From an uncultured Bacilli bacterium (lineage in GTDB: Bacteria; Bacillota_I; Bacilli_A; RFN20; CAG-826): 49,193 bases of DNA. Below, in pieces: positions 2,070 to 49,193 of this stretch (its first letter is position 1; each line of letters starts with the position of its first letter). The stretch is from assembly GCA_944349405.1 (NCBI GenBank), contig CALVMY010000099.1:1-49193 (forward strand), read 5' to 3'. Under the pieces are notes generated by a model. The model was not told where the DNA came from and did no database searches. It saw nothing but the letters and a program-made list of their open reading frames with translations. The position numbers and the translations under genes are program-made.

Positions 2070-2958
2070 ATTTTTCTCCTATTTTATCGACTAATTCATC
2101 GATTGTATTTATATTAGTTATATCTTTATTAAAACCAAAATCAGCTAAATATCGTTTAAATTTATAAAAAGAAGGGATTTCTAAAGAAAAATTACTTAAA
2201 TCTTTAGAATTAAAAAGTTCACTTGGAGTAACCATTTTTATAAAGCGAGAATCTTTTAAAACTACAACTTTTGAAGCATATTCCATTACTACATCCATAT
2301 CATGAGTAACAATAATAATCGTTGTTCCTTTTTCATGAATCTTTTTAATTAAAGATAAAATTTCTTTTTTTCCATTTGGATCAAGTCCAACAGTTGGCTC
2401 ATCTAAAACTAAAATTGAAGGGGATGAAGCAATAATTCCAGCAATAGCAACTCTTCTTTTTTCTCCTCCACTTATTTCAAAAGGACTTTTTTCATAATAT
2501 GTATAATCAATTCCAACCTCATCTAATGCTTCGATAGCTCTTTTTTTAGCTTCTTCTTCACTTAAACCGAAATTTAAAGGTCCGAACATTACATCTTTAA
2601 TAATTGTATCGCTAAAAAGTTGATATTCTGGAAATTGGAAAACCATTCCGACTTCTTTTCTTAAATGAGAAAATCTTTTAAGTTCTCTTTTTTTGATATT
2701 TTTTTCTTTTTTTAATCTTTTTATTATTTCTTTATCACCAGTTACATAATAATCTAAAACTTTTGTATAGCCGCTTGTAGGTAGTAAAAGACCATTTAAA
2801 GTTTGAACTAGAGTAGATTTACCACTTCCTGTATGACCAACTAAAGCGATAAAATCACCTTTTTCAATTGAAAAAGTAACCTCTTTTAAGGCGTCATAAT
2901 GATTTGGGTCTTTTTTGTTATATATAAAAGATATGTTGTTAAAAGAGATTAAAGACAT
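2059..2958 (-). CDS. ecfA2: ECF transporter ATPase subunit A2
   Basis: Walker A GHTGSGKST, ABC signature ISGGEKRR, Walker B ILVLDEP. Overlaps ecfA1 by 10 nt. Confidence 0.85.
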   Translation of the reverse strand: MSLISFNNISFIYNKKDPNHYDALKEVTFSIEKGDFIALVGHTGSGKSTLVQTLNGLLLPTSGYTKVLDYYVTGDKEIIKRLKKEKNIKKRELKRFSHLRKEVGMVFQFPEYQLFSDTIIKDVMFGPLNFGLSEEEAKKRAIEALDEVGIDYTYYEKSPFEISGGEKRRVAIAGIIASSPSILVLDEPTVGLDPNGKKEILSLIKKIHEKGTTIIIVTHDMDVVMEYASKVVVLKDSRFIKMVTPSELFNSKDLSNFSLEIPSFYKFKRYLADFGFNKDITNINTIDELVDKIGEKYGK

Positions 2959-3773
2959 ATATATTTAGCAAGTTCCTCAATAGTTTTTATATTTTCATCG
3001 ATTTCAATACCTTTTGTTTTTAATTTATTTTTAATTTTTAAAACAAAAGGGATATCTAGATTAATTTTTTTCATTTCTTCTTCGTTTTCAAATACTTTTG
3101 AAGGAATATCGTTTTTATATATTTTTCCTTCATTTAAAACGATTACTCGATCACTAAGATAAGCTTCTTCAATATCGTGAGTAATTGAAATGACGGTTAA
3201 ATCAGGATTTTCTTTTTTCATTCTTAAAATTAAGTTTCTTATTTCTTCAACTCCTTCAGGATCAAGCATTGAAGTTGCTTCATCAAAAATCATTATTTTT
3301 AAATTTAAAGCTAATATTCCAGCTATTGCAACTCTTTGTTTTTGGCCTCCACTTAATTCTTCTGGTTCTTTAGTTAAATAATTTTCCATTCCTACTTTTT
3401 TAGAATATTCTTTAACTATTTTTTTCATTTCCTCTTGTTTTATATTTCGATTTTCAAGACCAAAAGCAATATCGTCTTCTACGGTTGAACCAATAAATTG
3501 ATTATCTGGATTTTGAAAGACAATTCCAATTTTATTTCTGATATTTTTAATATTTTTTTCATTTAATTCTTCATTATCAATATATATCTTTCCTTTATTA
3601 GGTTCTAAAATGTAGCTTAAAAGTTTAGCTAGTGTTGATTTACCACTACCGTTATGTCCAATAAGAGTAACATATTCTCCCTTGTTAATAGAAAAAGATA
3701 CATTATTAAGTATCTTTTTCTCTTTTTCATAACTAAATGAAAGATTTTCGACCTTTATTACTTCTTGTTCCAT
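2949..3773 (-). CDS. ecfA1: ECF transporter ATPase subunit A1
   Basis: Walker A GHNGSGKST, signature LSGGQKQR, Walker B IMIFDEATS. First gene of the ecfA1-ecfA2-ecfT-truA operon. Confidence 0.85.
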   Translation of the reverse strand: MEQEVIKVENLSFSYEKEKKILNNVSFSINKGEYVTLIGHNGSGKSTLAKLLSYILEPNKGKIYIDNEELNEKNIKNIRNKIGIVFQNPDNQFIGSTVEDDIAFGLENRNIKQEEMKKIVKEYSKKVGMENYLTKEPEELSGGQKQRVAIAGILALNLKIMIFDEATSMLDPEGVEEIRNLILRMKKENPDLTVISITHDIEEAYLSDRVIVLNEGKIYKNDIPSKVFENEEEMKKINLDIPFVLKIKNKLKTKGIEIDENIKTIEELAKYICL

Positions 3774-27252: not shown

Positions 27253-27903
27253 TTAAAAATTATTAATTTTTTTAATATATTCATAAAATTCTAAATAAGA
27301 AGAGGCTTTAAAACAATAATCAATATTTTCGATATTAATTCTTTTGCGCATTAAAAAAATAGTTCCTAAAATAGAAGCATTTTTACTAGCTAAAGCATCA
27401 TAAAATGTGTCTCCTACCATCATCATCTCATCATTTTTAAGATTATATTTTTCTTTTAAATAATTAATTGCTTCAGGAGATGGTTTAGGAGGAAAAGAAG
27501 AATCACAGGTTATTAAATCTTTAAAATATTTTCTTAGATGAAATTTTTTTAAACAATATTCAGTCATTTCAAGTGTTTTAGCGGTTAAAACACATAAAAT
27601 AATTCCTTCTTCATATAATTTTTTTATTACTTTTTTAGAAAAAGGAAAGATAGATAAGTCAGTATCATAATATTTTTTTGTTCGTTCACGATATTCTCTT
27701 TTAATAAATTCTTTATCCTCATAATCTTTAAAAGCATCGTTTATCGCATAAGAAAGAGGAGGTCCACTATATTCAGCGATTTTTTCTTTATTAAAGGTTT
27801 CTCCACTTTTATATAAAGAAAATAATTCTTCCCATGTTTTAATTAAAATTAAATCGGAATCGATGATTGTACCATCCATATCAAAAATAAGCAGTTTAAT
27901 CAT
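27253..27903 (-). CDS. HAD-superfamily phosphatase (PpaX/phosphoglycolate-phosphatase-like)
   Basis: DMDGT motif I (LIFDMDGTIIDS), motif II T (LTAKT), motif IV GDTFYD. Its position after lgt matches the B. subtilis lgt ... ppaX neighbourhood. Confidence 0.7.
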   Translation of the reverse strand: MIKLLIFDMDGTIIDSDLILIKTWEELFSLYKSGETFNKEKIAEYSGPPLSYAINDAFKDYEDKEFIKREYRERTKKYYDTDLSIFPFSKKVIKKLYEEGIILCVLTAKTLEMTEYCLKKFHLRKYFKDLITCDSSFPPKPSPEAINYLKEKYNLKNDEMMMVGDTFYDALASKNASILGTIFLMRKRINIENIDYCFKASSYLEFYEYIKKINNF

Positions 27904-29389
27904 CGTTTTCCTCAGTTATTGAAATCTCTTTTACATCATTTTCTTCATTATAGTTTTTATACCATAAAAGTCTATTTTTCTTGATATAGAAATTATTAAA
28001 AACCGCTAAAGCAACAATTAATAATCCTCCACCAATCATTATATAAGAAGTGATTTCACTAGTTGCATAATAATCAGCCTCTGTTCTTAAAGGCTCTAAA
28101 ATAGCTCTAGTTACTCCATACCAAATTAAATATCCACCTAAAAGTGAACCATCAGAATGATATTTTCCAAGCAATTTTCTTATTAAATATTCTAAGATAA
28201 AATAACCTGCTAAATTTGATAAGAATTCAACAAAGAATAAAGGAACATAGAATTTACCATTTTCTAAATAATAATGTAGGGCAGTTTCTCCAATTAACGA
28301 AACACCATCAACTTCAGTACTTAAAATTGATCCGTGTTGGAAATACATATTATTTTTTATCCATGTAGGTAAAAATTCCCAATAAGAAATATCAACTAAT
28401 TGACCATAAACTTCATTATTAAAGAAATTACCAATTCTTCCTAATGCTTGAGCAAATAATATTGAAGGGATAATAATATCAATTGCTTTTAATAAAGAAA
28501 AATTCTTATATTGGCTTCTTTTCATTCCATATTTAACAACTAAAACTTGGGCAACACCAGCAATTATACCTAAAACTGCTCCTCCCATAATTCCTAATCC
28601 GCCCATTCTAAAGTTAAATATATTTACCCAGTTAGCACCAGCAAAATCAGTTGATCCACTACTTACACTTAAAATAACATACCAAATTCTTGCTCCAATT
28701 ACTCCTGAAGGGAAAGCAATTAAAAATGTATTTGTAATTAAATCATGCTTACCATAAATCTTATATAATTTATAATCACAAACATATAAGACTAAACAAG
28801 CACCAGATAAAATAAATAATGCGTATAAATAAATAGTTAAACCATCAGTATAATTATCATAATATTTATAAATATTGACTAATTTAATTCCTTTTGCACC
28901 AATATAGATCGCATTTGCTAAAGGATATTCTAAATAAGGAGCATTACCTTCTCCCCATAAAAAGAAAAATACTATTGTTAAGGCTAAAGAAAAACCTAGT
29001 GCCATAGTCGTATATTTTCTTTTTATCTCAAATTTTTCGATATATAACTTAATAAATAAAGAATAAATAAATGCCATTAAAGAGATAGCAAATAATATAC
29101 CAAATAAATAGACCATTACTTGGTGGTACCATTTTAAAGTTATATTATTAGTTTCTAAATAAATAGATGTATTTGGATCTAAATAGAATGCTAAATTTAA
29201 TAAAACAAAACCAAGAATAAAAGCAAGGGTAGGTATTCCTAGTTTTATTAAATTTTTCTTTATTAAATCGATAAATGATTCATATTTTGATTCATTTTTC
29301 TTAATAAAATATAAAAATACGATGCTAGTGATTAGTCCTCCAAATGTAAGAACTAATCCGATATAATAAGTAATCTCATATCCAATCAT
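27896..29389 (-). CDS. lgt: Phosphatidylglycerol-prolipoprotein diacylglyceryl transferase with a long N-terminal membrane extension
   Basis: Signature LGRIGNFFNNEVYG (Lgt G-R-x-G-N-F-x-N-x-E-x-x-G). 497 aa, versus about 270-290 for typical Lgt. Confidence 0.8.
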   Translation of the reverse strand: MIGYEITYYIGLVLTFGGLITSIVFLYFIKKNESKYESFIDLIKKNLIKLGIPTLAFILGFVLLNLAFYLDPNTSIYLETNNITLKWYHQVMVYLFGILFAISLMAFIYSLFIKLYIEKFEIKRKYTTMALGFSLALTIVFFFLWGEGNAPYLEYPLANAIYIGAKGIKLVNIYKYYDNYTDGLTIYLYALFILSGACLVLYVCDYKLYKIYGKHDLITNTFLIAFPSGVIGARIWYVILSVSSGSTDFAGANWVNIFNFRMGGLGIMGGAVLGIIAGVAQVLVVKYGMKRSQYKNFSLLKAIDIIIPSILFAQALGRIGNFFNNEVYGQLVDISYWEFLPTWIKNNMYFQHGSILSTEVDGVSLIGETALHYYLENGKFYVPLFFVEFLSNLAGYFILEYLIRKLLGKYHSDGSLLGGYLIWYGVTRAILEPLRTEADYYATSEITSYIMIGGGLLIVALAVFNNFYIKKNRLLWYKNYNEENDVKEISITEENDD

Positions 29390-32376: not shown

Positions 32377-33468
32377 TTATAGATTTTTTAGATTGTTTAT
32401 AATTGTTGTTGCAATATTTTTAGCCCCATCTAAATCAGGACAAAGTTTTTCTTTTTCGCTCATTTTTAAAAGAAGAGATGGTTCATCAATTAATATTTTT
32501 TTTAAAATTAAGAATAATTCTTTTGGTTTTTCAGCAACAAAAGCATATCCTCTAGAAGTAGCATAAATATAATTTAATTCTTCTTGTCCCAAAAGATGAC
32601 CAGTAAAAATAATTGGGATAGAAGCCGAAATAGCTTCAAACATTATATTTGGACCGGCTTTTGTTAAAATAATATCTCCTTGTCTAAGTCGATAATCCAT
32701 ATCATTTACATATCCAAAAATATTAACGCCATCTCGTTTTGTTAAATTTTTTTCTAAATATTTTTTAAGTTTTCCATCACTTCCTGTAATAATATCGATA
32801 TTAACATCAAAAGAATAAGCAACTTCAATAAGTTTTAAAGTTGTCTTTAAAGAACGTTGGCTTGGATTAACAAATATAAGTTTTTTTCTATCATTTTTTT
32901 CTTTTTTTACTTCAATATTTTTCTTAGACAAAGGAAATCCACATTGAATAAGAGTTTCCTCTTTAAATCCATCTTTTATAAAAATATCTTTTGTTTCTTT
33001 AACTGGTAAAAAATTTAAATCACTTCTTTTATCTCTCCATAAACTTGAATGTTTGACTGGATCAAGAACTACAACATAAAAAGGTATTCTTCTTTTTGTC
33101 TTTTTCAATACTTTAATAATAGAACCTACAAAACAGGGATGTAAAGAAACGATTAAATCAGGCTTATATTCATCTAAAAGTTTAAAGGTGTGATGCTTTA
33201 TTGCTTGATAAAGAAAATAATTCGATATTTTTCTAAAAAATGAGGAAAACTCAAAAAAGATTTTCCAAACCAAACGAAAACGAGTCGTTAAATTAATATA
33301 ACCTTGTTCTCCGCTACCTTCCTTATAACCTAAAAATAGTTTATTAGAATCATAATCATTTATATTCAAAGTCGGATCGATTTCGAGAAAAGCAGCTTTA
33401 ATAGCATTAGAGGCACTTCGATGGCCTCCGGTTTTACCCGCTGTTAAAAGAAGAATCTTTTTATCCAT
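32377..33468 (-). CDS. GT28-family glycolipid synthase (MGDG-synthase/UgtP-like diacylglycerol glycosyltransferase)
   Basis: N-terminus ILLLTAGKTGGHRSASNAIKAAF matches the MGDG_synth N-domain pattern (S-x-GGGH-x-x-AA-x-A-hydrophobic). 363 aa. Confidence 0.65.
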   Translation of the reverse strand: MDKKILLLTAGKTGGHRSASNAIKAAFLEIDPTLNINDYDSNKLFLGYKEGSGEQGYINLTTRFRLVWKIFFEFSSFFRKISNYFLYQAIKHHTFKLLDEYKPDLIVSLHPCFVGSIIKVLKKTKRRIPFYVVVLDPVKHSSLWRDKRSDLNFLPVKETKDIFIKDGFKEETLIQCGFPLSKKNIEVKKEKNDRKKLIFVNPSQRSLKTTLKLIEVAYSFDVNIDIITGSDGKLKKYLEKNLTKRDGVNIFGYVNDMDYRLRQGDIILTKAGPNIMFEAISASIPIIFTGHLLGQEELNYIYATSRGYAFVAEKPKELFLILKKILIDEPSLLLKMSEKEKLCPDLDGAKNIATTIINNLKNL

Positions 33469-33480
33469 TAAAGTCTCTAT

Positions 33481-33837
33481 TTATAACATGGCTCCTGAAG
33501 AAGCAGCTAAAACGATAATAATAATTTCGATAAGGTAAATAAATGCAAAAAGAGCAGATAAACCAACAGAAATCCATCCACAAATCATTCCAACAGTTGC
33601 AACATGATATTTATGATGTCTTTCGTTTAAAACTTTTTTTGCATTCTTCTCATTTTTTATTGCAAAAATTCCTAATATAAAGCCAAAAACAAGTGTTGAA
33701 AATAAAATGCTTAAGCAACCAAGAACTATTGAAACTACAGCGCTATTTTCGGCTTCAATAATTTCAGGAAGTGGTTTGTCGACAAAAACACGGTCGCCAT
33801 CTCTAACTTGGCCATTATAACTTTCAAATTCTTCCAT
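33481..33837 (-). CDS. Small membrane protein, DUF4190-like
   Basis: 118 aa with two hydrophobic hairpin segments (VVSIVLGCLSILFSTLVFGFILGIFAI ...). 12 nt upstream of the GT28 gene. Confidence 0.4.
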   Translation of the reverse strand: MEEFESYNGQVRDGDRVFVDKPLPEIIEAENSAVVSIVLGCLSILFSTLVFGFILGIFAIKNEKNAKKVLNERHHKYHVATVGMICGWISVGLSALFAFIYLIEIIIIVLAASSGAML

Positions 33838-33982
33838 AAATACCCCTCCGATATTAAGTGTTTATTGAATTTATTTTATTTTTTAATTTTCAAAATAATA
33901 AAATTTATTCTAAATAAATATTAATATAATTTTTATTTTTTAAAAATAATGTTATTAATTAAATACACAACTTTATTATAGT

Positions 33983-34942
33983 TTATTTGTTTAAAAATTC
34001 TTTAATCTTATTATCGTATTCTTCTAAATTCGAGGAGCGTACATGTGAATGTCTTCCGTGAGCAAAAAACACTAACTCGCTTAAAGGATTTTTAGAAGAG
34101 ATATAAAGTTTTTCACAAAGATTATGAGGCGAAAATATATCTTCTTCGCTATAAATTAAAAGAACAGGGCACTTCAAATTTTTTAATGTTTCAATTGGTT
34201 TATTATTAAAAAAACTAACTCCAGTATAAATTCTTGCTAAAAGAAAAGTTAAATGAAGCATTGGAAACGGTTTCTTTTTATAATGAATAAAATTTTGCTT
34301 AAACATTTCAAAGTATGTTGCAAATAAGCCTTCACCAACTATCTTTTTTACTTTGTCATATCCTTTTTCTTCTAATTTTTTAGTTGCAAATATAGCAGTT
34401 GCAGCACCAATACAAATCCCGTGAAAAACAAAACTTTCAATATTAAAACGTTTTTCAACATATTCCATCCATGCGATGATATCTTCACTTTCTTTTATTC
34501 CACCAGTTTGATATTTTCCATCACTTAAACCATGAGCACGTAAATCAACTACTAAGATGTTATATCCTTCTTCAGCATAAGGTTTTGCAAAATAATAACT
34601 ATAAAGAAGTGATTCCGTTCTTCCTTGCAAAATAATTGCACATTTTTTTGAACCAAAATCAATATATTCACCTTTTTGAAGCAATCCATCATGCGTTATT
34701 TCTAAAGGAATTCTTTTGTCATTATAAGAATTAGCCCAAGCAATTCCTTCTTTAAACATTTTAACTTGATCATCATCCTTTTTATTAGTGCATTCCCTTA
34801 TTCTCTTTTTTCTTGGGTTTCTATAAATGGTATTATAAAAAACTACGTGAGGAACAAGAATTAACATCACGAGAAGGTTAAATAAAATAAAGGCTGCAAT
34901 AACTATTAAAGTTATTTCCCGCCAACTCAATGGATTGCTCAT
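33983..34942 (-). CDS. Membrane-anchored alpha/beta-fold hydrolase with a Cys in the nucleophile elbow
   Basis: N-terminal TM and an alpha/beta hydrolase layout (ILQGRTES..., VVDLRAHGLSDG). The elbow reads HGICIGA (G-x-C-x-G) rather than G-x-S-x-G. Distal HGRHSH. Confidence 0.6.
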   Translation of the reverse strand: MSNPLSWREITLIVIAAFILFNLLVMLILVPHVVFYNTIYRNPRKKRIRECTNKKDDDQVKMFKEGIAWANSYNDKRIPLEITHDGLLQKGEYIDFGSKKCAIILQGRTESLLYSYYFAKPYAEEGYNILVVDLRAHGLSDGKYQTGGIKESEDIIAWMEYVEKRFNIESFVFHGICIGAATAIFATKKLEEKGYDKVKKIVGEGLFATYFEMFKQNFIHYKKKPFPMLHLTFLLARIYTGVSFFNNKPIETLKNLKCPVLLIYSEEDIFSPHNLCEKLYISSKNPLSELVFFAHGRHSHVRSSNLEEYDNKIKEFLNK

Positions 34943-35877
34943 AATTTTTTAATAATTCCGTTAAGAACCTCTTTTTCGTAACTTAAATCAGTAATTTTAC
35001 CTCCAAAATAGAAGGCAACATATAGTCCTGGACCACAATTTATACCAGTGTTAGGATAAATATTTGAAACAATTACTTCGCGTGGGCCGATTTCTTTCCT
35101 AATCATATCAGCAACGATTTCGGCTTGTTTTCTACGTAAAGTTTGAGAAACTAAAATGACTTGTTCTTTTGGATTTTTGATAGTTTTTTTAATATATTCG
35201 ATAACAACTTTATAAGTTTTATCAATTCCATTAACTTTTCCTAAAGGAGTAACCATCCCTTCCGAACTAAAATCTCCTAATGGTTTAATACCAAAAATAT
35301 TACCGAAAAATGCTTTAGCATTACTGATTCTGCCTTTACTTGCAACCCGGTTAAGATCATCAATAGGCCCCATTTGATGGAGACATTCTCTTTCTTGCTC
35401 TAAAAGTTTATAGTTCTCTTCAATACTTAATCCTTCATCACGATGTTTAGAAGCAACAATTGCAATACTACCAACCCCTAAAGAATAACGACGAGAATCA
35501 AGAACAAGAATTTTCCTAGATGGATATTCTTCCATTAATTCCTTGGCAGCTTGATTAGCAATTTTATAAACAGCACTTAAAGCACTAGAAATAGTAACAA
35601 CAAGAATATCTAATCCTTTTTCAATCCATAACCTCATTCTTTCTTTAGTTTTTTCTAGCCCAATCGCAGCTGTTTTATATCCATTAGGATTTGCTTTTAA
35701 TTTTTTATAAAAATCATCAAAAAAAGCATCATCTTCTTCTTCAAGATTACCTTCCATATTTTCTTGTTCAGGAGTTGAAATTACTCCACGAAGATAATCA
35801 TCAATTTTAAAACGTTTGCGAAGTTCTGGAGAAAGATCGCTTGTTGAATCAGTAAGAATTGCATAACTAAAATCCAT
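34939..35877 (-). CDS. DegV-family fatty-acid-binding protein (FakB-like)
   Basis: Starts AILTDSTSDLSPE (the DegV T-D-S-x-x-D signature) and is 312 aa. A 4-nt overlap couples it to the downstream hydrolase. Confidence 0.75.
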   Translation of the reverse strand: MDFSYAILTDSTSDLSPELRKRFKIDDYLRGVISTPEQENMEGNLEEEDDAFFDDFYKKLKANPNGYKTAAIGLEKTKERMRLWIEKGLDILVVTISSALSAVYKIANQAAKELMEEYPSRKILVLDSRRYSLGVGSIAIVASKHRDEGLSIEENYKLLEQERECLHQMGPIDDLNRVASKGRISNAKAFFGNIFGIKPLGDFSSEGMVTPLGKVNGIDKTYKVVIEYIKKTIKNPKEQVILVSQTLRRKQAEIVADMIRKEIGPREVIVSNIYPNTGINCGPGLYVAFYFGGKITDLSYEKEVLNGIIKKL

Positions 35878-35888
35878 ATTTTACCCCC

Positions 35889-36863
35889 TTAAATTTTTAA
35901 AGTTACACGATTAACATAGTCTAAACAATTATTATCTTTTAAAGAATAATTTTTTTGACCTAATGTTTCATTAATATATTTTGTAATTTCATCAATAGAA
36001 CGAGTTTTAATTCGTTTTGATAAAATTCTTACTTCAGGAATTTGTCCTGCGGCAAATGATGTTAATGTTGTAATATGCACATCGACTACTTCATTTGCTT
36101 TATTAATATAATGACCAAATTCAACGACTCTATCATCATCTAAATAAATTGCATAATGATGATAAAATCCTATATTTATTCTAATTACATCTCCTTTTTT
36201 AATCTCTTTATAACTGTAGCACATTTTAAATTTAGCTGCTTTTTCGCGTTTTAATTCATATAGTAATTTTAAACATTTATTTTTTATTTCTTCATTAGCA
36301 TTTATTAATTGATTACGAGAAGAATCGTTCTTCTTTAACATTGTTGGATAAATTGGTTTTCCAATTTTAAAATGAACCCTTTTAAAAATTCCATAGTTAA
36401 AATCCGAAATAACAGGGATTATAGGAGCGCCACTTTCTAAAGCAATCAAAAGGTATCCGTTTTTAAAATCGCCAAATTCAAAAAGTTTTTTATTAAAAAA
36501 ATAATCACCTTCAGGAAATACTAATAAACTTTTCTTTTTATTAAGTAAGGAACAACTTTTTACTATAAAATTATATTTTTCTCCTTTTAAATCAACTAAT
36601 ACGGCGCCTAAAAGAAGCATAAACGGTTTAAAAATTATTTGAAAACCATGATACCAATCAGCGGCTAAAAAATATAATCTTCGAAAGAAAAATAAATAGG
36701 CTATCGCAAGAGGATTTAATCCGCTTTTATGATTAGAAACAATTATAGCTCCTTTAGGGAGCTTAAATTTTTTTCCTCCTTCATAACTTATTTTGAATTT
36801 AAAAAAGAGTAGGGCAATAGGCAAACCAATTATAAGAGCTAAATAGTACATTATAGTTTTCAT
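35889..36863 (-). CDS. Fusion of a PlsC-type (lysophospholipid) acyltransferase with a C-terminal LRAT/PLAAT (NlpC/P60-like) Cys-His domain
   Basis: N-terminal TM, then acyltransferase blocks VSNHKSGLNP (H-x4-N), FPEG and APIIPV. The C-terminal ~110 aa carry GDVI...YHHYAIYL..VVEFGH and NNCLDYV, the His-box/NC-motif pair of LRAT-family enzymes. Confidence 0.6.
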   Translation of the reverse strand: MKTIMYYLALIIGLPIALLFFKFKISYEGGKKFKLPKGAIIVSNHKSGLNPLAIAYLFFFRRLYFLAADWYHGFQIIFKPFMLLLGAVLVDLKGEKYNFIVKSCSLLNKKKSLLVFPEGDYFFNKKLFEFGDFKNGYLLIALESGAPIIPVISDFNYGIFKRVHFKIGKPIYPTMLKKNDSSRNQLINANEEIKNKCLKLLYELKREKAAKFKMCYSYKEIKKGDVIRINIGFYHHYAIYLDDDRVVEFGHYINKANEVVDVHITTLTSFAAGQIPEVRILSKRIKTRSIDEITKYINETLGQKNYSLKDNNCLDYVNRVTLKI

Positions 36864-38773
36864 TGTTTGTTCCTAATTTTATTATAAAAATCTTCTGGAG
36901 TTCTTAAAGAGTCTTCTTTTTCAAGATTAATAGTAATATCAAAGGTTTTTTCTATACTTACAAGTAAAGACATGTATCCTAATGAATCGCCACCTAAATC
37001 AATAAAATAATCACTATCTTTTTTTATATTACTAATTTCTTTCCCTAGACTTGCCTTAAATAAGTCTTCGATTAAAAGTAAAGTCTCATCTTCTTTAGTT
37101 TTATTTATCGTTTCTTTTTTTATATTATTTAGTGAGAAAAAATGAATTTTATCTTCTTTTATAGCTTTTCTTAATTGAGCACGAGACATTTTTATAGCTT
37201 CATGATTTGTAATATCATCATAAGTTAATAAAATGTCATTTACATTATTTCCGTATTTAATTTTAGATAATAAAGGTCCGATTGAGTCTACTTCTTTTTC
37301 TATTAATAAATGAGGAGTGTCTTTTTTATATTGAATTATTAAAGAGAGTTTCCCTTTTAATTCAAGAACGGAAAAAGATTCAGCTAAAGACAAATTAATC
37401 TCTTTTTCTATAAGGTCAGGAGAAATATTTTCCCCGTTTTCTCCAATAAATAAATCGTCTTTTCTTCCTTTTATTAAATATTTTCCATTTTCATAAGAAA
37501 ATAAATCTTTTGTAAAAAATTTTTCTATTACTTCTTCTTTTCCATTTAAATAAATTATTCTTTTTGCTAAGCTAGTTCCTTCAATATATAAAATTCCGTC
37601 TTTATCAATACTATAAGAAACACTTGGAAAAGGCTCACCAACTGAACCGTCAATTCTATTAGAAAATTTAAGTGAAAGATTAGCTCCAGTAATTGATGCT
37701 TCTGTTGTTCCATAACCATTAAAAAGAGGATAGCCAATTCCGTTGATTATTTTTAAAACGTTAGAATCTATATAAGAGCCGCCCGAAATCATAAAACGTG
37801 GAGATTCTCCAAAAGCTTGAATTCTGACTTCTTTTAAAAGCAAACGTGATAATTTTAATGCTAAACGTGGAAAATAATCCCCTATTTTGGAAACTAAATT
37901 AATCGCTTTATTAAATGCTTTTTTCTTTTTTTCTCCAGCTGAATTTACTCCTTTTTTTATTCCTTCATAAAGTTTATTAAAAAGGAGGGGAGGAGCAAAA
38001 ATATGGGTAATTTCATGCCTAATTATTGTAGCGCGTATTGTTTCAGGTGATAAATCGTTAAAAAAAACGATAGTTCTATTAAAAAAAGCAAACCGTAAAT
38101 AAGAAACCATAATACCAAAAATATGAAAAAAAGGTAAAATTGCAGCCACCTTTATTCTCTTATGAAAATCTTCCATAAATAAAGGGTTTTTGGCAATAAT
38201 TTTATCGCTATTTAATATTTCTGAAGCAATTGAAGATCCTTCATATACAACTATTTTTGCTTCTAGACCAGTTAAACTTGAAGATAAAGCAAAAGTATTA
38301 GCCCAATTATTATTTTCTAGTTTTCCTTCAATATTATTTTTTAAAATTTCTTCAATATCTATTTTTATATAAGATTCAAAATCATTTGATAAAGTAATAA
38401 TTTTTTTAATATTTAATCTATCAAGCAACCTAATATTAAGATCTAAAGGATAATATCTATTTATTAAATAAGGGGAATATCCTGCCATCAAACTTCCCCA
38501 AAAAGCGATAATAAAAAACGGACCATTAGATAAGTCTATTCCGATATATTCATCCTTTGTCATTTTAAATGAACTTTTTAGATATAGTGCAAATTTTTCG
38601 ATTTCTTTTTCTACTTCTTCATATGTTTTACTTTCCATATCAAGATTGTTAAGTCTTTCATAAGCAATCATTTTTTTGCGACAAAAAACTATCGAATAAA
38701 TATCTTTTAATTCTTTTTTTGAATTTTCTAATAAATTCAAATTATATTTAACAGTAGCTCGATAGTTTTCCAT
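36860..38773 (-). CDS. Long-chain-fatty-acid-type adenylating enzyme fused to a C-terminal phosphopantetheine carrier domain
   Basis: ANL-superfamily cores LPFFHIFG, ISGGS, NGYGTTEAS and IKGRKDDLFIGENGENISP. The C-terminal IDLGGDSLGYMSLL is a PP-binding motif (the Ser is the 4'-PP attachment site). The P-loop core is divergent (SSSLTGLEAK). Confidence 0.7.
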   Translation of the reverse strand: MENYRATVKYNLNLLENSKKELKDIYSIVFCRKKMIAYERLNNLDMESKTYEEVEKEIEKFALYLKSSFKMTKDEYIGIDLSNGPFFIIAFWGSLMAGYSPYLINRYYPLDLNIRLLDRLNIKKIITLSNDFESYIKIDIEEILKNNIEGKLENNNWANTFALSSSLTGLEAKIVVYEGSSIASEILNSDKIIAKNPLFMEDFHKRIKVAAILPFFHIFGIMVSYLRFAFFNRTIVFFNDLSPETIRATIIRHEITHIFAPPLLFNKLYEGIKKGVNSAGEKKKKAFNKAINLVSKIGDYFPRLALKLSRLLLKEVRIQAFGESPRFMISGGSYIDSNVLKIINGIGYPLFNGYGTTEASITGANLSLKFSNRIDGSVGEPFPSVSYSIDKDGILYIEGTSLAKRIIYLNGKEEVIEKFFTKDLFSYENGKYLIKGRKDDLFIGENGENISPDLIEKEINLSLAESFSVLELKGKLSLIIQYKKDTPHLLIEKEVDSIGPLLSKIKYGNNVNDILLTYDDITNHEAIKMSRAQLRKAIKEDKIHFFSLNNIKKETINKTKEDETLLLIEDLFKASLGKEISNIKKDSDYFIDLGGDSLGYMSLLVSIEKTFDITINLEKEDSLRTPEDFYNKIRNKQ

Positions 38774-38779
38774 TATTAT

Positions 38780-40303
38780 CTACATAACCCCAATAATTAT
38801 GTGCGGTTTTTCTTGTCCTCCAGGAAAATAAGTGAATTCAACATCATCATTTTCTGTGAAAAATGAAGTAATTGTATCTACATCGTATTCATCAATTTCT
38901 TTTCCACCAAAAGCAACTACTGTTGAATATCCTTTAATTCGATTAGGTGATAAATAGCGTTCAAGTTGAGATCTTAAAGAAACATTTTTATCAATCTTAA
39001 ATTCAATCGTTTTTACTTTATTAACTATTTCGAGGTTCTTTTTAAAATCATTAAAAGTTCCATCAAACATTGAGGAGGCAATCTTGAAAAAAGTATTTAC
39101 TATTCCACGACATTCAACAACAACAAAGTTATTATAATGGCCCCGCCAAGCAATAGATTTAAGTTTATCTTCAATTTTTTTATCAGCACTAAAGAAAATT
39201 GTATTTTCTTTATAATATGGTTCGATTAGAGATTTTAATTCATCTTCACTAGGTTCATGACCGTGAGGAATTGTAAAACAAGCATCAGCTCCAATTTTTT
39301 CAAATAAAGAGGCAATTTGTTTTCCATAGGTAAAACAAACAACAGCATAGTCTGAATGTTTTCTTCTTTTTAATTGATTAAATTCTTGGGTTAAAAATAA
39401 ATCGTCTACTTTTGTTGTAACAATTGAACCAAATTTTTTAAAAATATTAATTACATTGTTTGGCCCATTAGTATGAATATGTACTTTTAATAAATTACCA
39501 TTTATTGCTAAAACTAGCGAATCTCCTCGCCCTTTTAAAAGATCAGAGTAGTATTCATAGTTATAATCGTCTTTAAGATTAATTGTAAATTCTGTGCAAT
39601 AACGAAAAAAAGTTAAAGGAGTATCTGAATTAGCATTTCTTTTTGGAAGAACACCACTCTCTTCACAATTAAAATAAGGATCATCTTCTTTAAAAGATTT
39701 TTTCATACCATCAACAACAAGATAAAATCCAAGCGCTCCACTATCAACAACATTGTTTGTTTTAAGAAGAGACATTTGAGAATTTGTTTTTAAAGTGCTT
39801 TCAAAAACACATTTGCTAAAAATTTCAAAAAATTTATCAAATGTTTGATTTTCAATATTTTTAAAGATTTCTAAGGACTTTTTTGCTCCTTCTCTCATAA
39901 CAGTTAGCATTGTTCCTTCGGCTGGATTTACTACTGCGGCATAAGCAATTTTATAAGCATGAACTATAGCGTTTTTAAAATCCTCAATGCTAATCGATTC
40001 TTTTCCTTTTAAATATTCGCTTAAACCAATAAAATATTGCGAAAGAATAAAACCACTATTCCCTCGACTATCTAAAGACATACTATGAGCAAATTTAAAG
40101 AGCAAATCTCCAGCGTTTTGTTTTTCGTCTGTAGCAACTAATCCTTTATGAAAAGATTGCTTCATGTTTGTTCCGGTATCACTATCACTTACTGGAAATG
40201 TATTAATATCATTTAAATAACTTTCATTATAAGATAGACTCGTAAAAGCCATTCTAAACATATGATAGAGGCTTGCTCCATCAATAACATTGTTTCTATT
40301 CAT
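38780..40303 (-). CDS. DAK2-domain fatty-acid kinase, FakA-like
   Basis: N-terminal DhaL/Dak2 motifs FPVSDSDTGTNM and DSRGNSGFILSQ. 507 aa, with a C-terminal region the size of the FakA DegV-like domain. Confidence 0.65.
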   Translation of the reverse strand: MNRNNVIDGASLYHMFRMAFTSLSYNESYLNDINTFPVSDSDTGTNMKQSFHKGLVATDEKQNAGDLLFKFAHSMSLDSRGNSGFILSQYFIGLSEYLKGKESISIEDFKNAIVHAYKIAYAAVVNPAEGTMLTVMREGAKKSLEIFKNIENQTFDKFFEIFSKCVFESTLKTNSQMSLLKTNNVVDSGALGFYLVVDGMKKSFKEDDPYFNCEESGVLPKRNANSDTPLTFFRYCTEFTINLKDDYNYEYYSDLLKGRGDSLVLAINGNLLKVHIHTNGPNNVINIFKKFGSIVTTKVDDLFLTQEFNQLKRRKHSDYAVVCFTYGKQIASLFEKIGADACFTIPHGHEPSEDELKSLIEPYYKENTIFFSADKKIEDKLKSIAWRGHYNNFVVVECRGIVNTFFKIASSMFDGTFNDFKKNLEIVNKVKTIEFKIDKNVSLRSQLERYLSPNRIKGYSTVVAFGGKEIDEYDVDTITSFFTENDDVEFTYFPGGQEKPHIIIGVM

Positions 40304-41096
40304 AACTTTTTATTCCTCTATTCTTATGAAATTTTTTATATTCTCTTTTTAATTGACCAAGCATATTAGCTCTTGCAAGAGTTTCAAAACACATTCCAAA
40401 AGCATGATCACCAAGTAAATGAACCATGCCCGAAGCAACTTTTACTCCAAGCATTTTTGCTTTGCTATGCCAAGTTGAACCATAATGATGTATAGATATA
40501 GTATTAGGAGTAATTTTTAATTCTTTGGTAATATAGTGTTTAGGAAAAAAGTATTCACGTGGAAGCAAAATAACATCATTATTAACGATTCTTTTTTTAC
40601 CATCAAGTTTTATATTATACAGTCTTTTTATCGAAGCAGAAAAATTTAAAACACATAACATGTTGCTTTTTCGATCTATTTTTTTACATGGTTTTTCATA
40701 GCGACTAAAAACTTCTTTCATAATTGGATGCCCTTTTTTAGAACCTAAAACAGCGCATCCGAACCAACAATTAGTTTCGTATCCAATAAAAAAAGAATAA
40801 TTATTTACTAACTCATTAAAACTTTTTAATAATTCAACATCAGTGTCTAAATATATTCCACCATAATTTAATAAAGCCCAACTTCTTATTACATCAGCGG
40901 CAATAGCGTAATTTTTTGCTTCAACAGCTTTTTTTACCCATTCATTAGAATTTATATCAAACGTTTTTTCATTCCGTTCATAAAATTTATAATCAGGAAG
41001 TAATTCTTTCCGCTTTTCAATAAATATTGCAAAACGTTCTGGTATTTTATTCCCTCCTAACCATACGTAATGTATGTTTTTTTCTATAAGTCCCAT
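40296..41096 (-). CDS. GT32-family (Gly_transf_sug, DXD) glycosyltransferase
   Basis: IHYVWLGG at the N-terminus, AADVIRSWALLNYGGIYLDTDVE (DXD motif). 266 aa; first gene of the operon. Confidence 0.7.
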   Translation of the reverse strand: MGLIEKNIHYVWLGGNKIPERFAIFIEKRKELLPDYKFYERNEKTFDINSNEWVKKAVEAKNYAIAADVIRSWALLNYGGIYLDTDVELLKSFNELVNNYSFFIGYETNCWFGCAVLGSKKGHPIMKEVFSRYEKPCKKIDRKSNMLCVLNFSASIKRLYNIKLDGKKRIVNNDVILLPREYFFPKHYITKELKITPNTISIHHYGSTWHSKAKMLGVKVASGMVHLLGDHAFGMCFETLARANMLGQLKREYKKFHKNRGIKSYE

Positions 41097-41567
41097 GGTA
41101 AAATGTTACAACCAAAAAGATTATTCTTCAACTTATATTTATTAATAAATCATTTATTAAATAGGTAATTTCTTTATTTTTTTACTTAATTTTATTTTCT
41201 TTCTTTTATAAAGATATTTTTAATCTCGGATTAAAAATATAATTATTTTATTAAATAATTAAGAAAATTGTCTTTTTTAATTAAAGATAAATATTATCCT
41301 ATATCATTAATAGGTATTAATACTTTTTTGCTATTTCATCATTTATCTCTATATAAGGATTAGATATAAAGAAAATATTTTTAATAGTTTATTAAGTTTC
41401 ATATTTTTAAGACTTCCTTTTTAAGAAACAATTATTAATCTTTATAATCTAAATTTAAAAAAATATTTTATTTACAATTGAAGAAATAATTAATCTATAG
41501 CTTATAGGAATAAATATCACTCTTTTGACATTAAAATGTTTCATATTGATTAAAAAAATATAATTTA

Positions 41568-41607
41568 CTTTATAAAAGAAAAGAAACGACTTTAAATGTC
41601 GTTTCTT
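41568..41607 (-). terminator. Rho-independent terminator of the alcohol dehydrogenase gene
   Basis: Perfect 10-bp stem 41581-41590 AAGAAACGAC with 41598-41607 GTCGTTTCTT and a 7-nt loop. The T-rich tail on the minus strand is TTCTTTTAT. Confidence 0.7.
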
Positions 41608-44123: not shown

Positions 44124-44999
44124 ATGAAGATTTGTGTTACAACCGATGATACTGCCCAATTCACAAAAGAAGAAATTAAAGAATATGGCAATTTATATAC
44201 AGTTAGAGTACCTATTATTATTAATGGAGAAGCTTTTTTTCAAAACGAAACAATCGATAATGATACATTTTTTAAACGCTTAGAAAATGATGATGATATC
44301 GCTACTTCTCAACCTTCTCCAGGAGAAATCATGGAACTTTGGACAAAGTTATTAAAAGAATATGATGCAATCATACATATTCCTCTTTCTTCTGGCTTAT
44401 CAGAAGCTTGCAATAGTGCAAAAATGATTTCCCAAGAAGATGAATTTAAAGGAAAAGTTTTTGTTTGTGATAATCATAGAGTCGAGCCAACTTTAAGAGA
44501 AAGTGTTATAGATGCTTTAAAATTAATTAAAAAGGGTTATAAACCGGAAGAAATTCAAAAAATTATTGTTGATGAAGGTCCTAATTCATCAATTTATATT
44601 ATGGTAGATACTTTAAAATATCTTAAAAAAGGCGGAAGAGTTACTCCAGCAGCTGCAATGATTGGAGGAGCTCTCCATGTTAAACCAATTCTAGCTATTT
44701 TTGGTGGAAAACTCGATGCTTATCAAAAAGTAATCGGATCTAAAAAAGGAAGAAAAGTTTTAATTGAAGCAATTAGAAAAGATATGAATGAAAAATTCAA
44801 AGGTTTAAATAAAGATGAATTATATTTTGGGGCAGCTTATGCTAATAATAAAGAAGAAGCCGAAGAATTCATTAAAGAAGCAGCTAAAGAATTAGGCGTA
44901 GATTCATTTGAATTAAGACCACTTTCACTTGTTGTTTCGACTCATACCGGTCCTGGAATATTAGCTTTAACTGTAGCTAAAAAAGCAATTAAGGAATAA
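44124..44999 (+). CDS. DegV-family fatty-acid-binding protein
   Basis: 291 aa with canonical ATSQPSPGE and YLKKGGRV motifs. Confidence 0.85.
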   Translation: MKICVTTDDTAQFTKEEIKEYGNLYTVRVPIIINGEAFFQNETIDNDTFFKRLENDDDIATSQPSPGEIMELWTKLLKEYDAIIHIPLSSGLSEACNSAKMISQEDEFKGKVFVCDNHRVEPTLRESVIDALKLIKKGYKPEEIQKIIVDEGPNSSIYIMVDTLKYLKKGGRVTPAAAMIGGALHVKPILAIFGGKLDAYQKVIGSKKGRKVLIEAIRKDMNEKFKGLNKDELYFGAAYANNKEEAEEFIKEAAKELGVDSFELRPLSLVVSTHTGPGILALTVAKKAIKE

Positions 45000-45290: not shown

Positions 45291-45977
45291 ATGAAAACTA
45301 GAAAATTTTTAACATTATTAACATTGCATTAATATTAACTTCTTGTTCTAGAGATTTTTTTAGTTGCGGTTGATCTTTATTTTTTAGGTAAAAGCAAATT
45401 TCAAGATTTTTTAGAAAATTATATTGCTGATAGCGATTCATTATATGTCCGAGAACTTTATTTATTTAAGCGGGGTAAAAATTGAAGATATATATTTAGA
45501 AACTCCATATTCTTTAGAATCTCCGATCATTAATGTTTCAGCTTATAAAAAAGAGGCTTTCTCTTCTGATGAAATATTTTATTTAAATAGTATTAAAGAA
45601 GTAAGTAGGATTGCTTATTCTTTCTATTATTCTTAGTTTGACTGCTAGATTAATATAACAACAAAAATGTATTTTAAAAGTAAAGAAAACTTTATTGAAG
45701 CAAAAACTAAATCAATAGATAAAGTCGAACAAAAATATGAATATAATGAAGAAATTCGTTCAATTCAATATATTTTTGATTATTATTATCCACTTTATGA
45801 ATTTGGCTTTCATGCTAGAGATAAAACAATTTATCAAGATGATATTTATGAAGTAACTGTTTATTATAGTTGGTATATGAAGAAGATTTTAATGATGAAT
45901 TAGATATTCTTGAATCTATTTTTAGTGAAGAAATTAGTTTTGGAAATTATAAAAATTATTTTAAATCATATTCATAA
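45291..45977 (+). pseudogene. Decayed lipoprotein gene broken into at least 6 pieces by frameshifts and nonsense codons
   Basis: MKTRKFLTLLTL(H*) continues one frame over as ALILTSCSRDFF (lipobox LTSC). Further open stretches follow in shifting frames. The track ORFs 45424-45636 and 45667-45903 share one frame, separated by two in-frame TAG codons. A last 33-codon stretch runs in another frame to 45977. Confidence 0.5.
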
Positions 45978-47401
45978 TATTTAAACGTTTCATCTTCATT
46001 TATAAATTTAAAATTTAATCGATTAATTAATTTATCGCTTTTTATATTTTCTTTAAAACATTTCATTCTTATTTTATTTATATGTATATTTTCTTTTAAA
46101 TAGATTAAAAGAAAATATATAGTTTTATATCCAATATTTTTTCCTTCCATTTCTTCTATTAATCTAATTCCTAATTCTAAAGAATTATCATTTCTATAAT
46201 CATATAAAACTACTTCTCCACTAAACTTATCTTGATAATAAATTAATAAAGATAATCCGCTTTTATTTTTAAAATCATTTATTACATCATTATAAAAATA
46301 TAATGGATCTACTTTTTCATTTTCTTTTAAATGTAATTTATACTCATATCCCCAATATTTATTTCTTTTTTCATTTATTACCAATAAATAATAATCTTTC
46401 ATATTATCTTCATCTATCTTTTTTAAAAGTATATTTTCATCTACTTTTAAAAAAGGGAATGAAGATAATAAAGTCATGTTATTTAAAACTTTAAATGCTA
46501 TTTTATCAACTAATTTAATAGGATTATAACTTCTTTTAGATTGTCTTAATCCTAAATCTCCACTATCATCTTCTCGATTAAAATATTTAACTCTATCTTT
46601 ATTATATATAGCGATATTATTAATTAAATATGGATAGATTCCTTTATAAAATCTATTACATTTTTCAATATGGTCGAAAATTACATCATTAACGATTTCA
46701 CAAACACTAAATCCGATTAATTTTTCTTTATCATAAACTAAATAAAGATCAAAATTTAATTTTCTTATATTTTTTAATACTTGCTTACTTTTTTTAGCTT
46801 CATTTAACCCAATTTCGTTAAGTTCATTATTTTTATTTATAATAAATTCATCGATTAATGCTAAAGAATCATTTATTTCTTTATTAAAAAGTTGAGTATT
46901 ATTAAAATCACTCTTTTTAAAATAGGTAGAAGGATATAATTTTTTAAAAGTATTTAATTGATGTCTTTTTTCTTGAAACTTTTTACCTTTAAAATAAATA
47001 AAATCCTCATTTAAATATAAATAATCACTCCACATCTTATCAACTTCATATTTATAAACAGGGAAATAATCTCTTAAAATCTCTAAATTACTATTATTTA
47101 AACAGGCAAACTCTAATGGTAAAGAATTAGTTTTTAAAGCATCTAAAGAGATTAACTCTAATGATTTTAAATAATTATTTCCTAATGGAAAATAATATAA
47201 ATATTTATTATTTTCTTTATCGAATTTAGCTTTTAATAAAATATTAGATTCATCAAGATAACAAATTAAAGTCTCATAATATTCTTTCCGCATATATAAA
47301 ATTCCTAGTGTATAATCACACATATAAGAATTTGATTGATATAACAATTCTTTTATCTTTTTTAAATCATTTAACTCTAATTTTTTAAATATTAAATCCA
47401 T
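45956..47401 (-). CDS. DUF2156 (MprF C-terminal-like, LPG_synthase_C) domain fused to a RimJ/RimL-type GNAT domain
   Basis: The first ~310 aa carry DUF2156 hallmarks (DYLYLNEDFIYFKGKKFQEKRHQLNTFKK ... HIEKCNRFYKGIYPYL ... NREDDSGDLGLRQSKRSYNP). The last ~150 aa look like an Acetyltransf_3 GNAT. Confidence 0.6.
   Translation of the reverse strand: MDLIFKKLELNDLKKIKELLYQSNSYMCDYTLGILYMRKEYYETLICYLDESNILLKAKFDKENNKYLYYFPLGNNYLKSLELISLDALKTNSLPLEFACLNNSNLEILRDYFPVYKYEVDKMWSDYLYLNEDFIYFKGKKFQEKRHQLNTFKKLYPSTYFKKSDFNNTQLFNKEINDSLALIDEFIINKNNELNEIGLNEAKKSKQVLKNIRKLNFDLYLVYDKEKLIGFSVCEIVNDVIFDHIEKCNRFYKGIYPYLINNIAIYNKDRVKYFNREDDSGDLGLRQSKRSYNPIKLVDKIAFKVLNNMTLLSSFPFLKVDENILLKKIDEDNMKDYYLLVINEKRNKYWGYEYKLHLKENEKVDPLYFYNDVINDFKNKSGLSLLIYYQDKFSGEVVLYDYRNDNSLELGIRLIEEMEGKNIGYKTIYFLLIYLKENIHINKIRMKCFKENIKSDKLINRLNFKFINEDETFKYYEYDLK

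Positions 47402-48517: not shown

Positions 48518-49193
<676 letters not shown>

Follow-up and report, generated by a model that had tools for sequence, protein, structure and literature searches.

What would a bacterium make with two acyl-activating systems, a PlsC-type acyltransferase fused to an LRAT domain, an alpha/beta-fold enzyme with a cysteine nucleophile and two glycosyltransferases, all encoded side by side? The question is raised by contig CALVMY010000099.1 of an uncultured Bacilli bacterium (assembly GCA_944349405.1), the whole analysed stretch of which (49,193 nt, 25% GC) is called the window below. Its eight consecutive minus-strand open reading frames (ORFs) at 41096-32377 form the cassette considered here. 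We propose, with a probability of roughly 0.55, that these genes constitute an accessory, horizontally mobile cassette that uses free fatty acids to build or modify a glycosylated glycerolipid on the cytoplasmic side of the membrane.

Organization of the Locus

In the direction of transcription, the cassette opens with a glycosyltransferase of the GT32 type (GT-A, DXD; 40296-41096, 266 aa, PF04488), followed by a FakA-like kinase paralogue (38780-40303, 507 aa, PF02734, PF21645 and a partial PF13684) and by an AMP-binding::PP-binding protein, in which an adenylase is joined to a carrier domain (adenylase::carrier; 36860-38773, 637 aa, PF00501 and PF00550). The next gene encodes the PlsC::LRAT fusion with an N-terminal hydrophobic helix (35889-36863, 324 aa, PF01553 and PF04970). 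It precedes genes for a DegV/FakB-like fatty-acid-binding protein (34939-35877, 312 aa, PF02645) and for a membrane-anchored alpha/beta-fold enzyme with a Cys177-Asp268-His298 triad (33983-34942, 319 aa), referred to below as the Cys-hydrolase. A small DUF4190-like membrane protein (33481-33837, 118 aa) and a GT28 glycosyltransferase resembling monogalactosyldiacylglycerol (MGDG) synthase and UgtP (32377-33468, 363 aa, PF06925) complete the series. All these Pfam families, and alpha/beta hydrolase as well, are matched above their gathering scores; the DUF4190 match stays below. The reading frames of the cassette are all intact.

The GT32 and FakA-like genes overlap by 8 nt, the adenylase::carrier and PlsC::LRAT genes by 4 nt, and the DegV and Cys-hydrolase genes also by 4 nt. 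The remaining junctions are gaps of 6 nt (FakA-like/adenylase::carrier), 11 nt (PlsC::LRAT/DegV), 145 nt (Cys-hydrolase/DUF4190) and 12 nt (DUF4190/GT28). The coordinates, strand, overlaps and gaps given in the first-pass annotation of this DNA agree exactly with ours, and every one of its domain calls turned out to be correct by Pfam. It had also singled out the tight packing. The overlaps and tiny gaps are real, but they are not distinctive, since other genes of the window overlap too (2059-2958 with 2949-3773, and 27253-27903 with 27896-29389). Such packing is ordinary in this compact genome of 25% GC. The meaningful test is the conservation of gene order, which extends across about 100 loci in several phyla and exceeds chance.

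Two terminator-like hairpins on the minus strand flank the cassette. One, a strong hairpin with 12 pairs and a T-run, follows the upstream iron-containing alcohol dehydrogenase (Fe-ADH) gene at 41609-41579 and marks the 5′ operon boundary; the other, a weak one at 32369-32355, begins 8 nt past the GT28 stop codon and marks the 3′ boundary. The eight genes thus look like one transcription unit, the promoter of which must lie within 41097-41578. A promoter scan returned 58 sites against 58.8 expected, which is not above chance, and no promoter is proposed. Scans of the window for tRNAs and Rfam families gave no matches.

Conservation, Variants and Spread of the Cassette

A genome scan with the single PlsC::LRAT protein as query gave no matches. 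An alignment of PlsC::LRAT proteins succeeded: used against species-representative genomes and JGI metagenomes, it retrieved 94 loci, and contig look-ups contributed eleven further loci (L001-L006 and L101-L105). Gene order was compared by tblastn of the window proteins against 100 loci. Homologues of the adenylase::carrier and PlsC::LRAT proteins come from uncultured material only. The loci are all from metagenome-assembled genomes (MAGs) or metagenomes, and their MAG taxonomy may include binning errors.

The recurrent order of the long form, with optional genes in parentheses, is GT32 - (MFS_2) - FakA-like - adenylase::carrier - PlsC::LRAT - DegV - hydrolase - (DUF4190) - GT28 - (GT2). The full eight-gene order is found in MAGs of uncultured Bacilli/Firmicutes and in those of termite-gut Clostridiales, Treponema and Oscillospiraceae. 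Short contigs of Actinomycetes and Fibrimonas (Fibrobacterota) hold the front part only, with the order unchanged over the genes carried. MFS_2 and GT2 genes extend some long-form loci. Other Treponema possess a short form, GT32 - adenylase::carrier - PlsC::LRAT - hydrolase. Further variants are reduced in different ways. In loci L089 and L077 the FakA-like gene stands immediately before PlsC::LRAT and the adenylase is missing; L097 has the same arrangement and lacks the LRAT domain as well. L026 consists of GT32 - PlsC::LRAT - hydrolase only, and L023 of GT32 - PlsC (without LRAT) - hydrolase - GT2. GT32 is present in every locus whose sequence extends far enough upstream, and the DegV gene of the cassette always accompanies the FakA-like gene.

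Since variant loci drop either acyl-activating unit, the invariant core consists of GT32, a PlsC-type acyltransferase (usually fused to LRAT) and the Cys-Asp-His alpha/beta-fold enzyme. The adenylase::carrier is an optional feeder, and so is the FakA-like/DegV pair; the two are interchangeable and present separately or together. GT28, GT2, the MFS_2 transporter and DUF4190 are add-ons. Co-conservation across genomes, on which the first-pass annotation had let its proposal depend, is strongly borne out by the roughly 100 syntenic loci, and these also rule out an unrelated chance adjacency in a compact genome. The self-contained module envisaged there is accordingly conserved, but not as a single fixed unit of six or eight genes, the core being three genes and the feeders optional.

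The cassette copies of termite-gut bacteria from different phyla are 55-84% identical to one another. Within the clade of the window, identity is 54-73%, and this clade includes a MAG of 56% GC (L001). On L001/L007, a 676-kb scaffold of 56% GC, the gene order is the same as in the 25% GC window at 59-70% protein identity, and the flanking genes are different. The genes Fe-ADH, Macro, UvrA and Lgt, which flank the cassette in the window, were used as four queries; apart from the conspecific L101, no other locus has them in its flanks. Taken together, the identity across phyla, the contrast in GC content and the differing flanks indicate that the cassette has moved between lineages as a whole unit. 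The same locus is also carried by a conspecific MAG (GCA_949284785.1, contig CASDWU010000041.1). Decay of the cassette in this lineage was also considered. Against the conspecific strain, the ratio of nonsynonymous to synonymous polymorphism (pN/pS) is below 1 for all six comparable cassette genes (DUF4190 and GT28 differ in length), a result based on 2-17 substitutions per gene, counts too small to say more.

Aryl-Polyene-Like Clusters and Split Relatives

In 10 of the 12 short-form loci with an adenylase::carrier gene, the short form is embedded in an aryl-polyene-like cluster, in varying order and orientation. All ten are termite-gut Treponema loci (L003, L015, L019, L030, L034, L041, L056, L067, L076 and L096). 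The clusters contain genes for a ketosynthase (KS), a KS resembling the chain-length factor (CLF), an ApeP-like dehydratase, a ketoreductase, an aromatic ammonia-lyase, a methyltransferase, an AMP-ligase::ApeI-like protein, an acyl carrier protein (ACP), DUF3261, LolA, MMPL and GT2. No other PlsC-type gene is found in their annotated stretches. The L003 cluster also has a B12/radical-SAM gene and a gene for a large Plug-domain outer-membrane protein. A full-text search found no paper that joins termite gut, Treponema and aryl polyene. Type II polyketide synthase genes (KS/CLF, dehydratase, ketoreductase and ACPs) and the LolA/DUF3261/MMPL export genes are absent from the window.

The aryl-polyene product of Xenorhabdus is a diacyl-glycerol-phosphate-GalNAc, the sugar of which bears the polyene as an ester; the PlsC-type enzyme ApeD puts a carrier-bound acyl chain on a lysolipid, and ApeJ attaches the sugar, which it also acylates (bioRxiv 10.1101/2020.12.19.423268). 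By analogy, the cassette may supply lipid-anchor acylation and glycosylation in the aryl-polyene-like clusters of Treponema.

More distant adenylase::carrier homologues, with 36-38% identity, head a split version of the cassette (L103, 7087-11815; L104, 7097-10621; L005, 10001-17934). Here the adenylase::carrier gene is followed by an MFS (major facilitator superfamily) gene in L005, by two PlsC genes or a PlsC-PlsC didomain, by an AMP-ligase gene in L005, by an ACP gene in L005 and L103, by a standalone LRAT gene, and by a phosphopantetheinyl transferase (PPTase) gene in L005 and L103. The L103 and L104 loci also hold alpha/beta hydrolases and GT2. The split version of L103 lies beside full-length fakA, plsX and two degV genes, and that of L104 directly after fakA and degV. 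The split relatives thus show that adenylase::carrier, PlsC, LRAT and hydrolase occur together with Fak genes and a glycosyltransferase irrespective of any particular fusion. In them, a second PlsC domain occupies the position of the LRAT domain of the window protein, and LRAT is a separate downstream gene; this arrangement weakly suggests that the fused PlsC::LRAT may perform more than one acyl transfer. There are termite-gut loci with acetyl-CoA carboxylase genes nearby. The first-pass idea that the cassette works independently of plsX/plsY/acpP is weakened by these nearby genes and by the split relative beside fakA-plsX-degV.

Acyl-Activating Proteins

The adenylase (PF00501, 87 bits) has invariant A5 (NGYGTTE), A7 (D423), A8 (GR(K)DD...GEN.SP, G436-R437) and A10 (catalytic K528) motifs. 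Its A3 P-loop is atypical: it reads SSSLTGLEAK in the window and SS(S/T)LTGLEAK in the family consensus, with only T168 and K173 invariant, and does not conform to the canonical (T/S)SG(T/S)TGxPKG. The AlphaFold2 (AF2) model has a mean predicted local distance difference test score (pLDDT) of 82.9, falling below 50 at residues 167-170. In amino-acid-activating A domains, such as those of nonribosomal peptide synthetases (NRPS) and DltA, an A4 aspartate (FDxS) binds the alpha-amino group. The A4 motif of the cassette protein is PFFHIFG, as in MenE and acyl-CoA ligases, and because it carries the invariant His217 where those domains have the aspartate, the adenylase is not of the amino-acid type. 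To this extent the fatty-acyl-type adenylase assumed earlier is upheld; its placement among fatty-acyl ligases is not, since neither profile nor fold places it there. NCBIfam matches of the adenylase are all far below cutoff, and a substrate is assigned neither by these matches nor by the profile and fold comparisons. A helical insertion of about 50 aa lies between A4 and A5 (residues 262-320); an assignment to the ACSL/FadD11 or FAAL (fatty acyl-AMP ligase) insertion is not claimed, its sole support being a weak contiguous FadD11 match of 31 bits.

The carrier domain (PF00550, 35.6 bits) has the motif DLGGDSL with the invariant Ser597, and AcpP-type ACPs are its best matches. With its atypical P-loop, the adenylase::carrier protein forms a clade of its own. 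The 4-nt overlap of its gene with PlsC::LRAT is also kept in L001 and L003.

The FakA-like protein has an ATP domain of the Dak2 type, a middle domain and, at its C terminus, a domain that has diverged. In S. aureus FakA, the ATP/Mg site consists of Asp38, Asp40, Thr41, Asn82 and Asp185, and the triad Cys240, His282 and His284 is essential (PMC9136124). Alignment to structures 7w7h and 7rm7 shows that D40, D42, T43, N82, D187, C236, H275 and H277 of the cassette protein match the FakA catalytic set and are conserved, the first five in at least 97% of 25 family members. The middle-domain triad is likewise kept as C236 (YCTE) and H275/H277 (HIH). The FakB-binding domain at the C terminus gives only a partial match to PF13684 (28.5 bits, profile positions 2-116 of 216). 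Against the curated models the protein scores 159 vs. 975 for the FakA equivalog NF038248 and 282 vs. 396 for TIGR03599, and it is a paralogue and not the housekeeping FakA.

The DegV protein of the cassette (PF02645, 151 bits) passes TIGR00762 (162 vs. 99.7) and misses the cutoff of the FakB1 equivalog (96 vs. 350). Its R183, in GRIS, is the conserved counterpart of FakB Arg173, which is essential for phosphorylation. The earlier identification of a FakA/DegV pair therefore holds, the whole published FakA catalytic set and the FakB arginine being kept. A second DegV gene lies 9 kb upstream in the window (44124-44999, plus strand); its product is 27% identical to the cassette DegV, outscores it on the DegV and FakB1 models and probably represents the housekeeping FakB. 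A housekeeping fakA is absent from the window.

Acyltransferase, Hydrolase and Glycosyltransferases

In the PlsC domain family, at least 97% of 74 sequences keep H45 and D50 of motif I (HX4D), and motif III (FPEG) is present. The AF2 model of the PlsC::LRAT protein (pLDDT 82.9) finds T. maritima PlsC (5kym) as the top Foldseek match (E 1e-6), with PatA nearly as good. The LRAT domain (PF04970, 48.9 bits) has invariant H236 and C313 (NNCLD), and Foldseek relates it to PLAAT3/4, with a target-normalised TM-score of 0.72-0.73 to PLAAT3 and AdPLA. Full-length PlsC::LRAT fusions are rare: a library of 1.84 billion cluster representatives yielded only 3 clusters that are close and about 6 that are distant. 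A PlsC-LRAT fusion is absent among the solved structures matched and from the full-text literature searched.

The Cys-hydrolase has the elbow H-G-I-C-I-G, which departs from the G-x-S-x-G elbow of serine hydrolases; its cysteine aligns with the serine in G-F-S-M-G of esterase 5g59. The cysteine elbow noticed at first sight is real, as at least 97% of 54 family members keep each of Cys177, Asp268 and His298, which form a Cys-Asp-His triad. A protein search with the hydrolase yielded 336 related clusters, some of them labelled 'lysophospholipase' by their source.

The GT32 protein (PF04488, 49.7 bits vs. a cutoff of 23) resembles the DXD region of TcdA/TcdB, and at least 97% of 37 sequences retain D84 and D86 of its LDTD motif. 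GT28 matches PF06925 (MGDG_synth) with 51.7 bits vs. 25, and its C-terminal PF04101 match falls just under the cutoff (20.1 vs. 22). The best NCBIfam matches of GT28 are diglucosyl-diacylglycerol synthase models (87 bits vs. a cutoff of 500). The DUF4190 protein scores 30.3 bits against a Pfam cutoff of 35. Its relatives bear an N-terminal zinc ribbon that is absent from the window protein. The gene is preceded by a non-coding gap of 145 nt (33838-33982), much longer than that of its relatives, and no longer ORF in the DUF4190 frame is found within it.

Proposed Pathway and Alternative Explanations

In the proposed pathway, DegV would bind a fatty acid, which the FakA-like kinase would convert to acyl-phosphate. 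In parallel, the adenylase would form an acyl-adenylate and store its acyl moiety, in thioester linkage, on the carrier domain fused to the enzyme. The PlsC domain, the start codon of which overlaps the adenylase stop codon, would transfer the carrier-bound acyl group to a lysolipid or to a hydroxyl of a sugar, forming an ester. The LRAT Cys-His domain and the Cys-hydrolase would move or remove acyl groups via thioester intermediates, either in a second or third acylation (e.g., of the sugar) or in acyl exchange with an existing phospholipid. GT28 would make a glycosyl-diacylglycerol, and GT32 would add or provide a sugar. As the expected product, we infer an acylated glycosyl-glycerolipid. 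The invariant GT32 and the presence of the short form inside aryl-polyene-lipid-like clusters point more to acylated-glycolipid assembly than to a Lands cycle. Of the two functions offered by the first-pass annotation, remodelling or glycolipid assembly, the latter is thus favoured, and a Lands cycle is only one possibility.

A bolder version of the proposal would have the cassette make a hitherto unseen class of sugar-acylated (tri-acyl) glycoglycerolipids by a thiol relay, in which the acyl group passes from the carrier thioester to the LRAT cysteine and/or the hydrolase cysteine and on to the acceptor, and the acyl-phosphate of the FakA-like/DegV pair is used directly by one of these enzymes. 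We consider it speculative and unlikely. If true, it would give acyl-phosphate a third fate besides PlsY and PlsX and would provide gut bacteria with a portable route for turning scavenged host or dietary acyl chains into glycolipids of their own.

Several observations weigh against the proposed glycolipid function. Every locus comes from an uncultured organism, and all the evidence is comparative. A fatty acid is put forward as the adenylase substrate from genomic context only: by PDB profile the closest solved relatives are MenE (97 bits) and then NRPS A domains, with FadD13 much weaker, and Foldseek ranks McyG, MenE, DltA, FadD32 and AasS about equally. What the LRAT domain and the Cys-hydrolase are said to do here is guesswork, and either could be a hydrolytic or editing enzyme. 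The window shows no PlsY, no phosphatidate phosphatase and no PPTase, which leaves gaps in the pathway as drawn. Furthermore, PlsC motif I of the window reads HKSGLN, i.e., HX4N, with Asn50 encoded by aat at 36716-36714, whereas the 98% identical conspecific protein (P0121, locus L101) has aspartate at this position. Asn50 is either a strain-level change possibly impairing the enzyme or a sequencing error, and the activity of this copy of the cassette may be reduced. Within the species, pN/pS is 0.44 for PlsC::LRAT and 0.63 for the FakA-like gene as compared to 0.04-0.11 for flanking housekeeping genes, values based on very few substitutions.

The same enzymes could instead serve phospholipid repair of the Aas/LplT type or a Lands cycle, in which the LRAT domain and the hydrolase would deacylate phospholipids or imported lysophospholipids, PlsC would re-acylate them from the in-cis carrier, and the glycosyltransferases would have some other purpose. 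The Acholeplasmataceae locus L005 suits this explanation, for it combines adenylase::carrier, MFS, two PlsC, AMP-ligase, ACP, LRAT and PPTase genes, and its PlsC and ligase genes match Aas models. The MFS_2 gene of many long-form loci, the likeness of the LRAT domain to PLAAT phospholipases/acyltransferases and the label 'lysophospholipase' that some sources give to the hydrolase also agree with it. However, it is GT32 that is invariant, whereas adenylase::carrier and MFS are dispensable; GT28 and GT2 accompany the long form, the window has no MFS gene, and the Aas model scores are all far below their cutoffs. We find repair or remodelling of this kind rather unlikely. It is decidedly unlikely that the cassette is the main lipid pathway of a reduced host devoid of type II fatty acid synthesis, with adenylase::carrier replacing AcpP/PlsX as the PlsC donor, FakA-like/DegV feeding PlsY, and GT28 and GT32 making the bulk glycolipids, as the first-pass idea of independence from plsX/plsY/acpP would have it. 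The GC content of about 25% and the compact gene content do resemble those of small-genome host-associated bacteria, a split relative lies directly beside fakA-plsX-degV, and the 4-nt overlap of the adenylase and PlsC genes is conserved. Yet the distribution is patchy and horizontally spread, including Treponema and Clostridia with acetyl-CoA carboxylase genes nearby, and the window holds a second, more canonical DegV. In addition, the FakA-like and DegV proteins are divergent paralogues far below equivalog cutoffs, this strain tolerates the HX4N change in its PlsC domain, and plsY is absent from the cassette.

Two further explanations concern the adenylase substrate. The adenylase might activate a non-fatty carboxylate (an aryl, polyene, hydroxy or dicarboxylic acid), and the cassette would then link a specialised metabolite to a glycolipid in the manner of aryl-polyene lipids. 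The short form inside aryl-polyene-like clusters, the MenE enzymes as closest solved relatives and the atypical P-loop are compatible with this, but the window and other long-form loci have no polyketide genes and carry the fatty-acid-handling DegV and FakA-like proteins instead, and the aryl-polyene-like clusters already hold a ligase and an ACP of their own; we judge it very improbable. A DltA-like adenylase that aminoacylates a glycolipid or a teichoic-acid-like polymer is scarcely credible. Although NCBIfam and Foldseek show a weak likeness to amino-acid adenylation domains and DltA, and although the carrier motif is DLGGDSL, the A4 motif has its invariant His217 in place of aspartate, the carrier domain is best matched by AcpP models, DltB and DltD are missing, and an O-acyltransferase of the PlsC type is encoded downstream.

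Assembly of an acylated glycolipid, which we continue to favour, would be of interest in several respects. Unusual features of the cassette are the rare PlsC::LRAT fusion, the adenylase::carrier of a separate clade and the obligatory alpha/beta-fold partner with an invariant cysteine nucleophile. Its spread between at least five phyla in gut ecosystems argues for a selectable, self-contained membrane or surface lipid function. If the product is an acylated glycolipid made from scavenged fatty acids, it would fill gaps in our picture of membrane building by uncultured small-genome gut Bacilli, and it would help to explain the anchoring of aryl-polyene-type pigments in spirochaetes. Glycolipids of such a kind are often immunologically active. 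The cassette is tractable, comprising eight genes in about 9 kb with clear point mutants.

Other Features of the Window

A further lipid-related oddity near the operon is a 481-aa protein encoded at 45956-47401 on the minus strand, which combines LPG_synthase_C (the MprF C-terminal domain, of the aminoacyl-phosphatidylglycerol synthase type) with GNAT and has no other Pfam domain and no NCBIfam match. The prolipoprotein diacylglyceryl transferase Lgt (27896-29389, minus strand) carries an N-terminal extension of about 180 aa ahead of its Lgt domain (residues 184-459). An ORF of 1537 aa at 19965-24578 (plus strand) is without any Pfam or NCBIfam match. Near the edge of the window, the enolase ORF at 48518-49192 (minus strand) comprises the C-terminal TIM-barrel part only, with in-frame stop codons upstream, and reflects either a frameshift or pseudogene or an assembly error.

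Comparison with Known Systems

A full-text literature search found no description of this gene combination, in agreement with the initial impression that it is not a described operon. The locus resembles parts of Aas/LplT, FakAB-PlsX/Y/C, ApeD/ApeJ and UgtP/LtaA and is a member of none of them: it misses the equivalog cutoffs, has other fusions, an atypical P-loop and a hydrolase that works with cysteine, and GT32 is obligatory in it.

Like E. coli Aas with LplT, the cassette pairs an acyltransferase of the PlsC type with an adenylate-forming enzyme whose product is a carrier acyl-thioester, and some relatives of the cassette add an MFS gene. Unlike Aas, the cassette has separate overlapping genes in the opposite order, a carrier fused to the adenylase instead of a free ACP, a PlsC fused to LRAT, and a glycosyltransferase and a Cys-hydrolase as obligatory partners. 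Against the Aas model NF006386 the score is 26.6, with a cutoff of 1221. With the FakA/FakB-PlsX-PlsY-PlsC route of Firmicutes, the cassette shares a kinase with all the FakA catalytic residues and a DegV with the essential arginine, and one split relative adjoins plsX; its copies are, however, divergent and optional, and the operon has no PlsX or PlsY.

The ApeD/ApeJ system of Xenorhabdus and E. coli also has a PlsC-type enzyme, carrier-bound acyl chains and a sugar that is added and then acylated, and the short form lies within ape-like clusters of Treponema. In contrast to that system, the window is devoid of polyketide genes, the glycosyltransferase of the cassette is GT32 and not GT2, its acyltransferase is fused to LRAT, and a Cys-hydrolase and adenylase::carrier are added. 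UgtP/YpfP with LtaA offers a parallel for the GT28 enzyme of the MGDG-synthase type and for the adjacent MFS transporter of several relatives. Here GT28 is optional and reaches 87 vs. an equivalog cutoff of 500, the window has no MFS gene, and no link to lipoteichoic acid was seen.

At the level of single domains, the predicted PlsC fold matches PatA, the mannose acyltransferase of mycobacterial phosphatidylinositol mannosides (PIM), almost as well as PlsC, and the C-terminal domain matches mammalian PLAAT/LRAT enzymes, namely PLAAT3/4, with their Cys-His pair, but sequence identity of these enzymes to the cassette protein is only 14-27%. In general, each of the enzyme families is known; what is new is the architecture and the proposed pathway.

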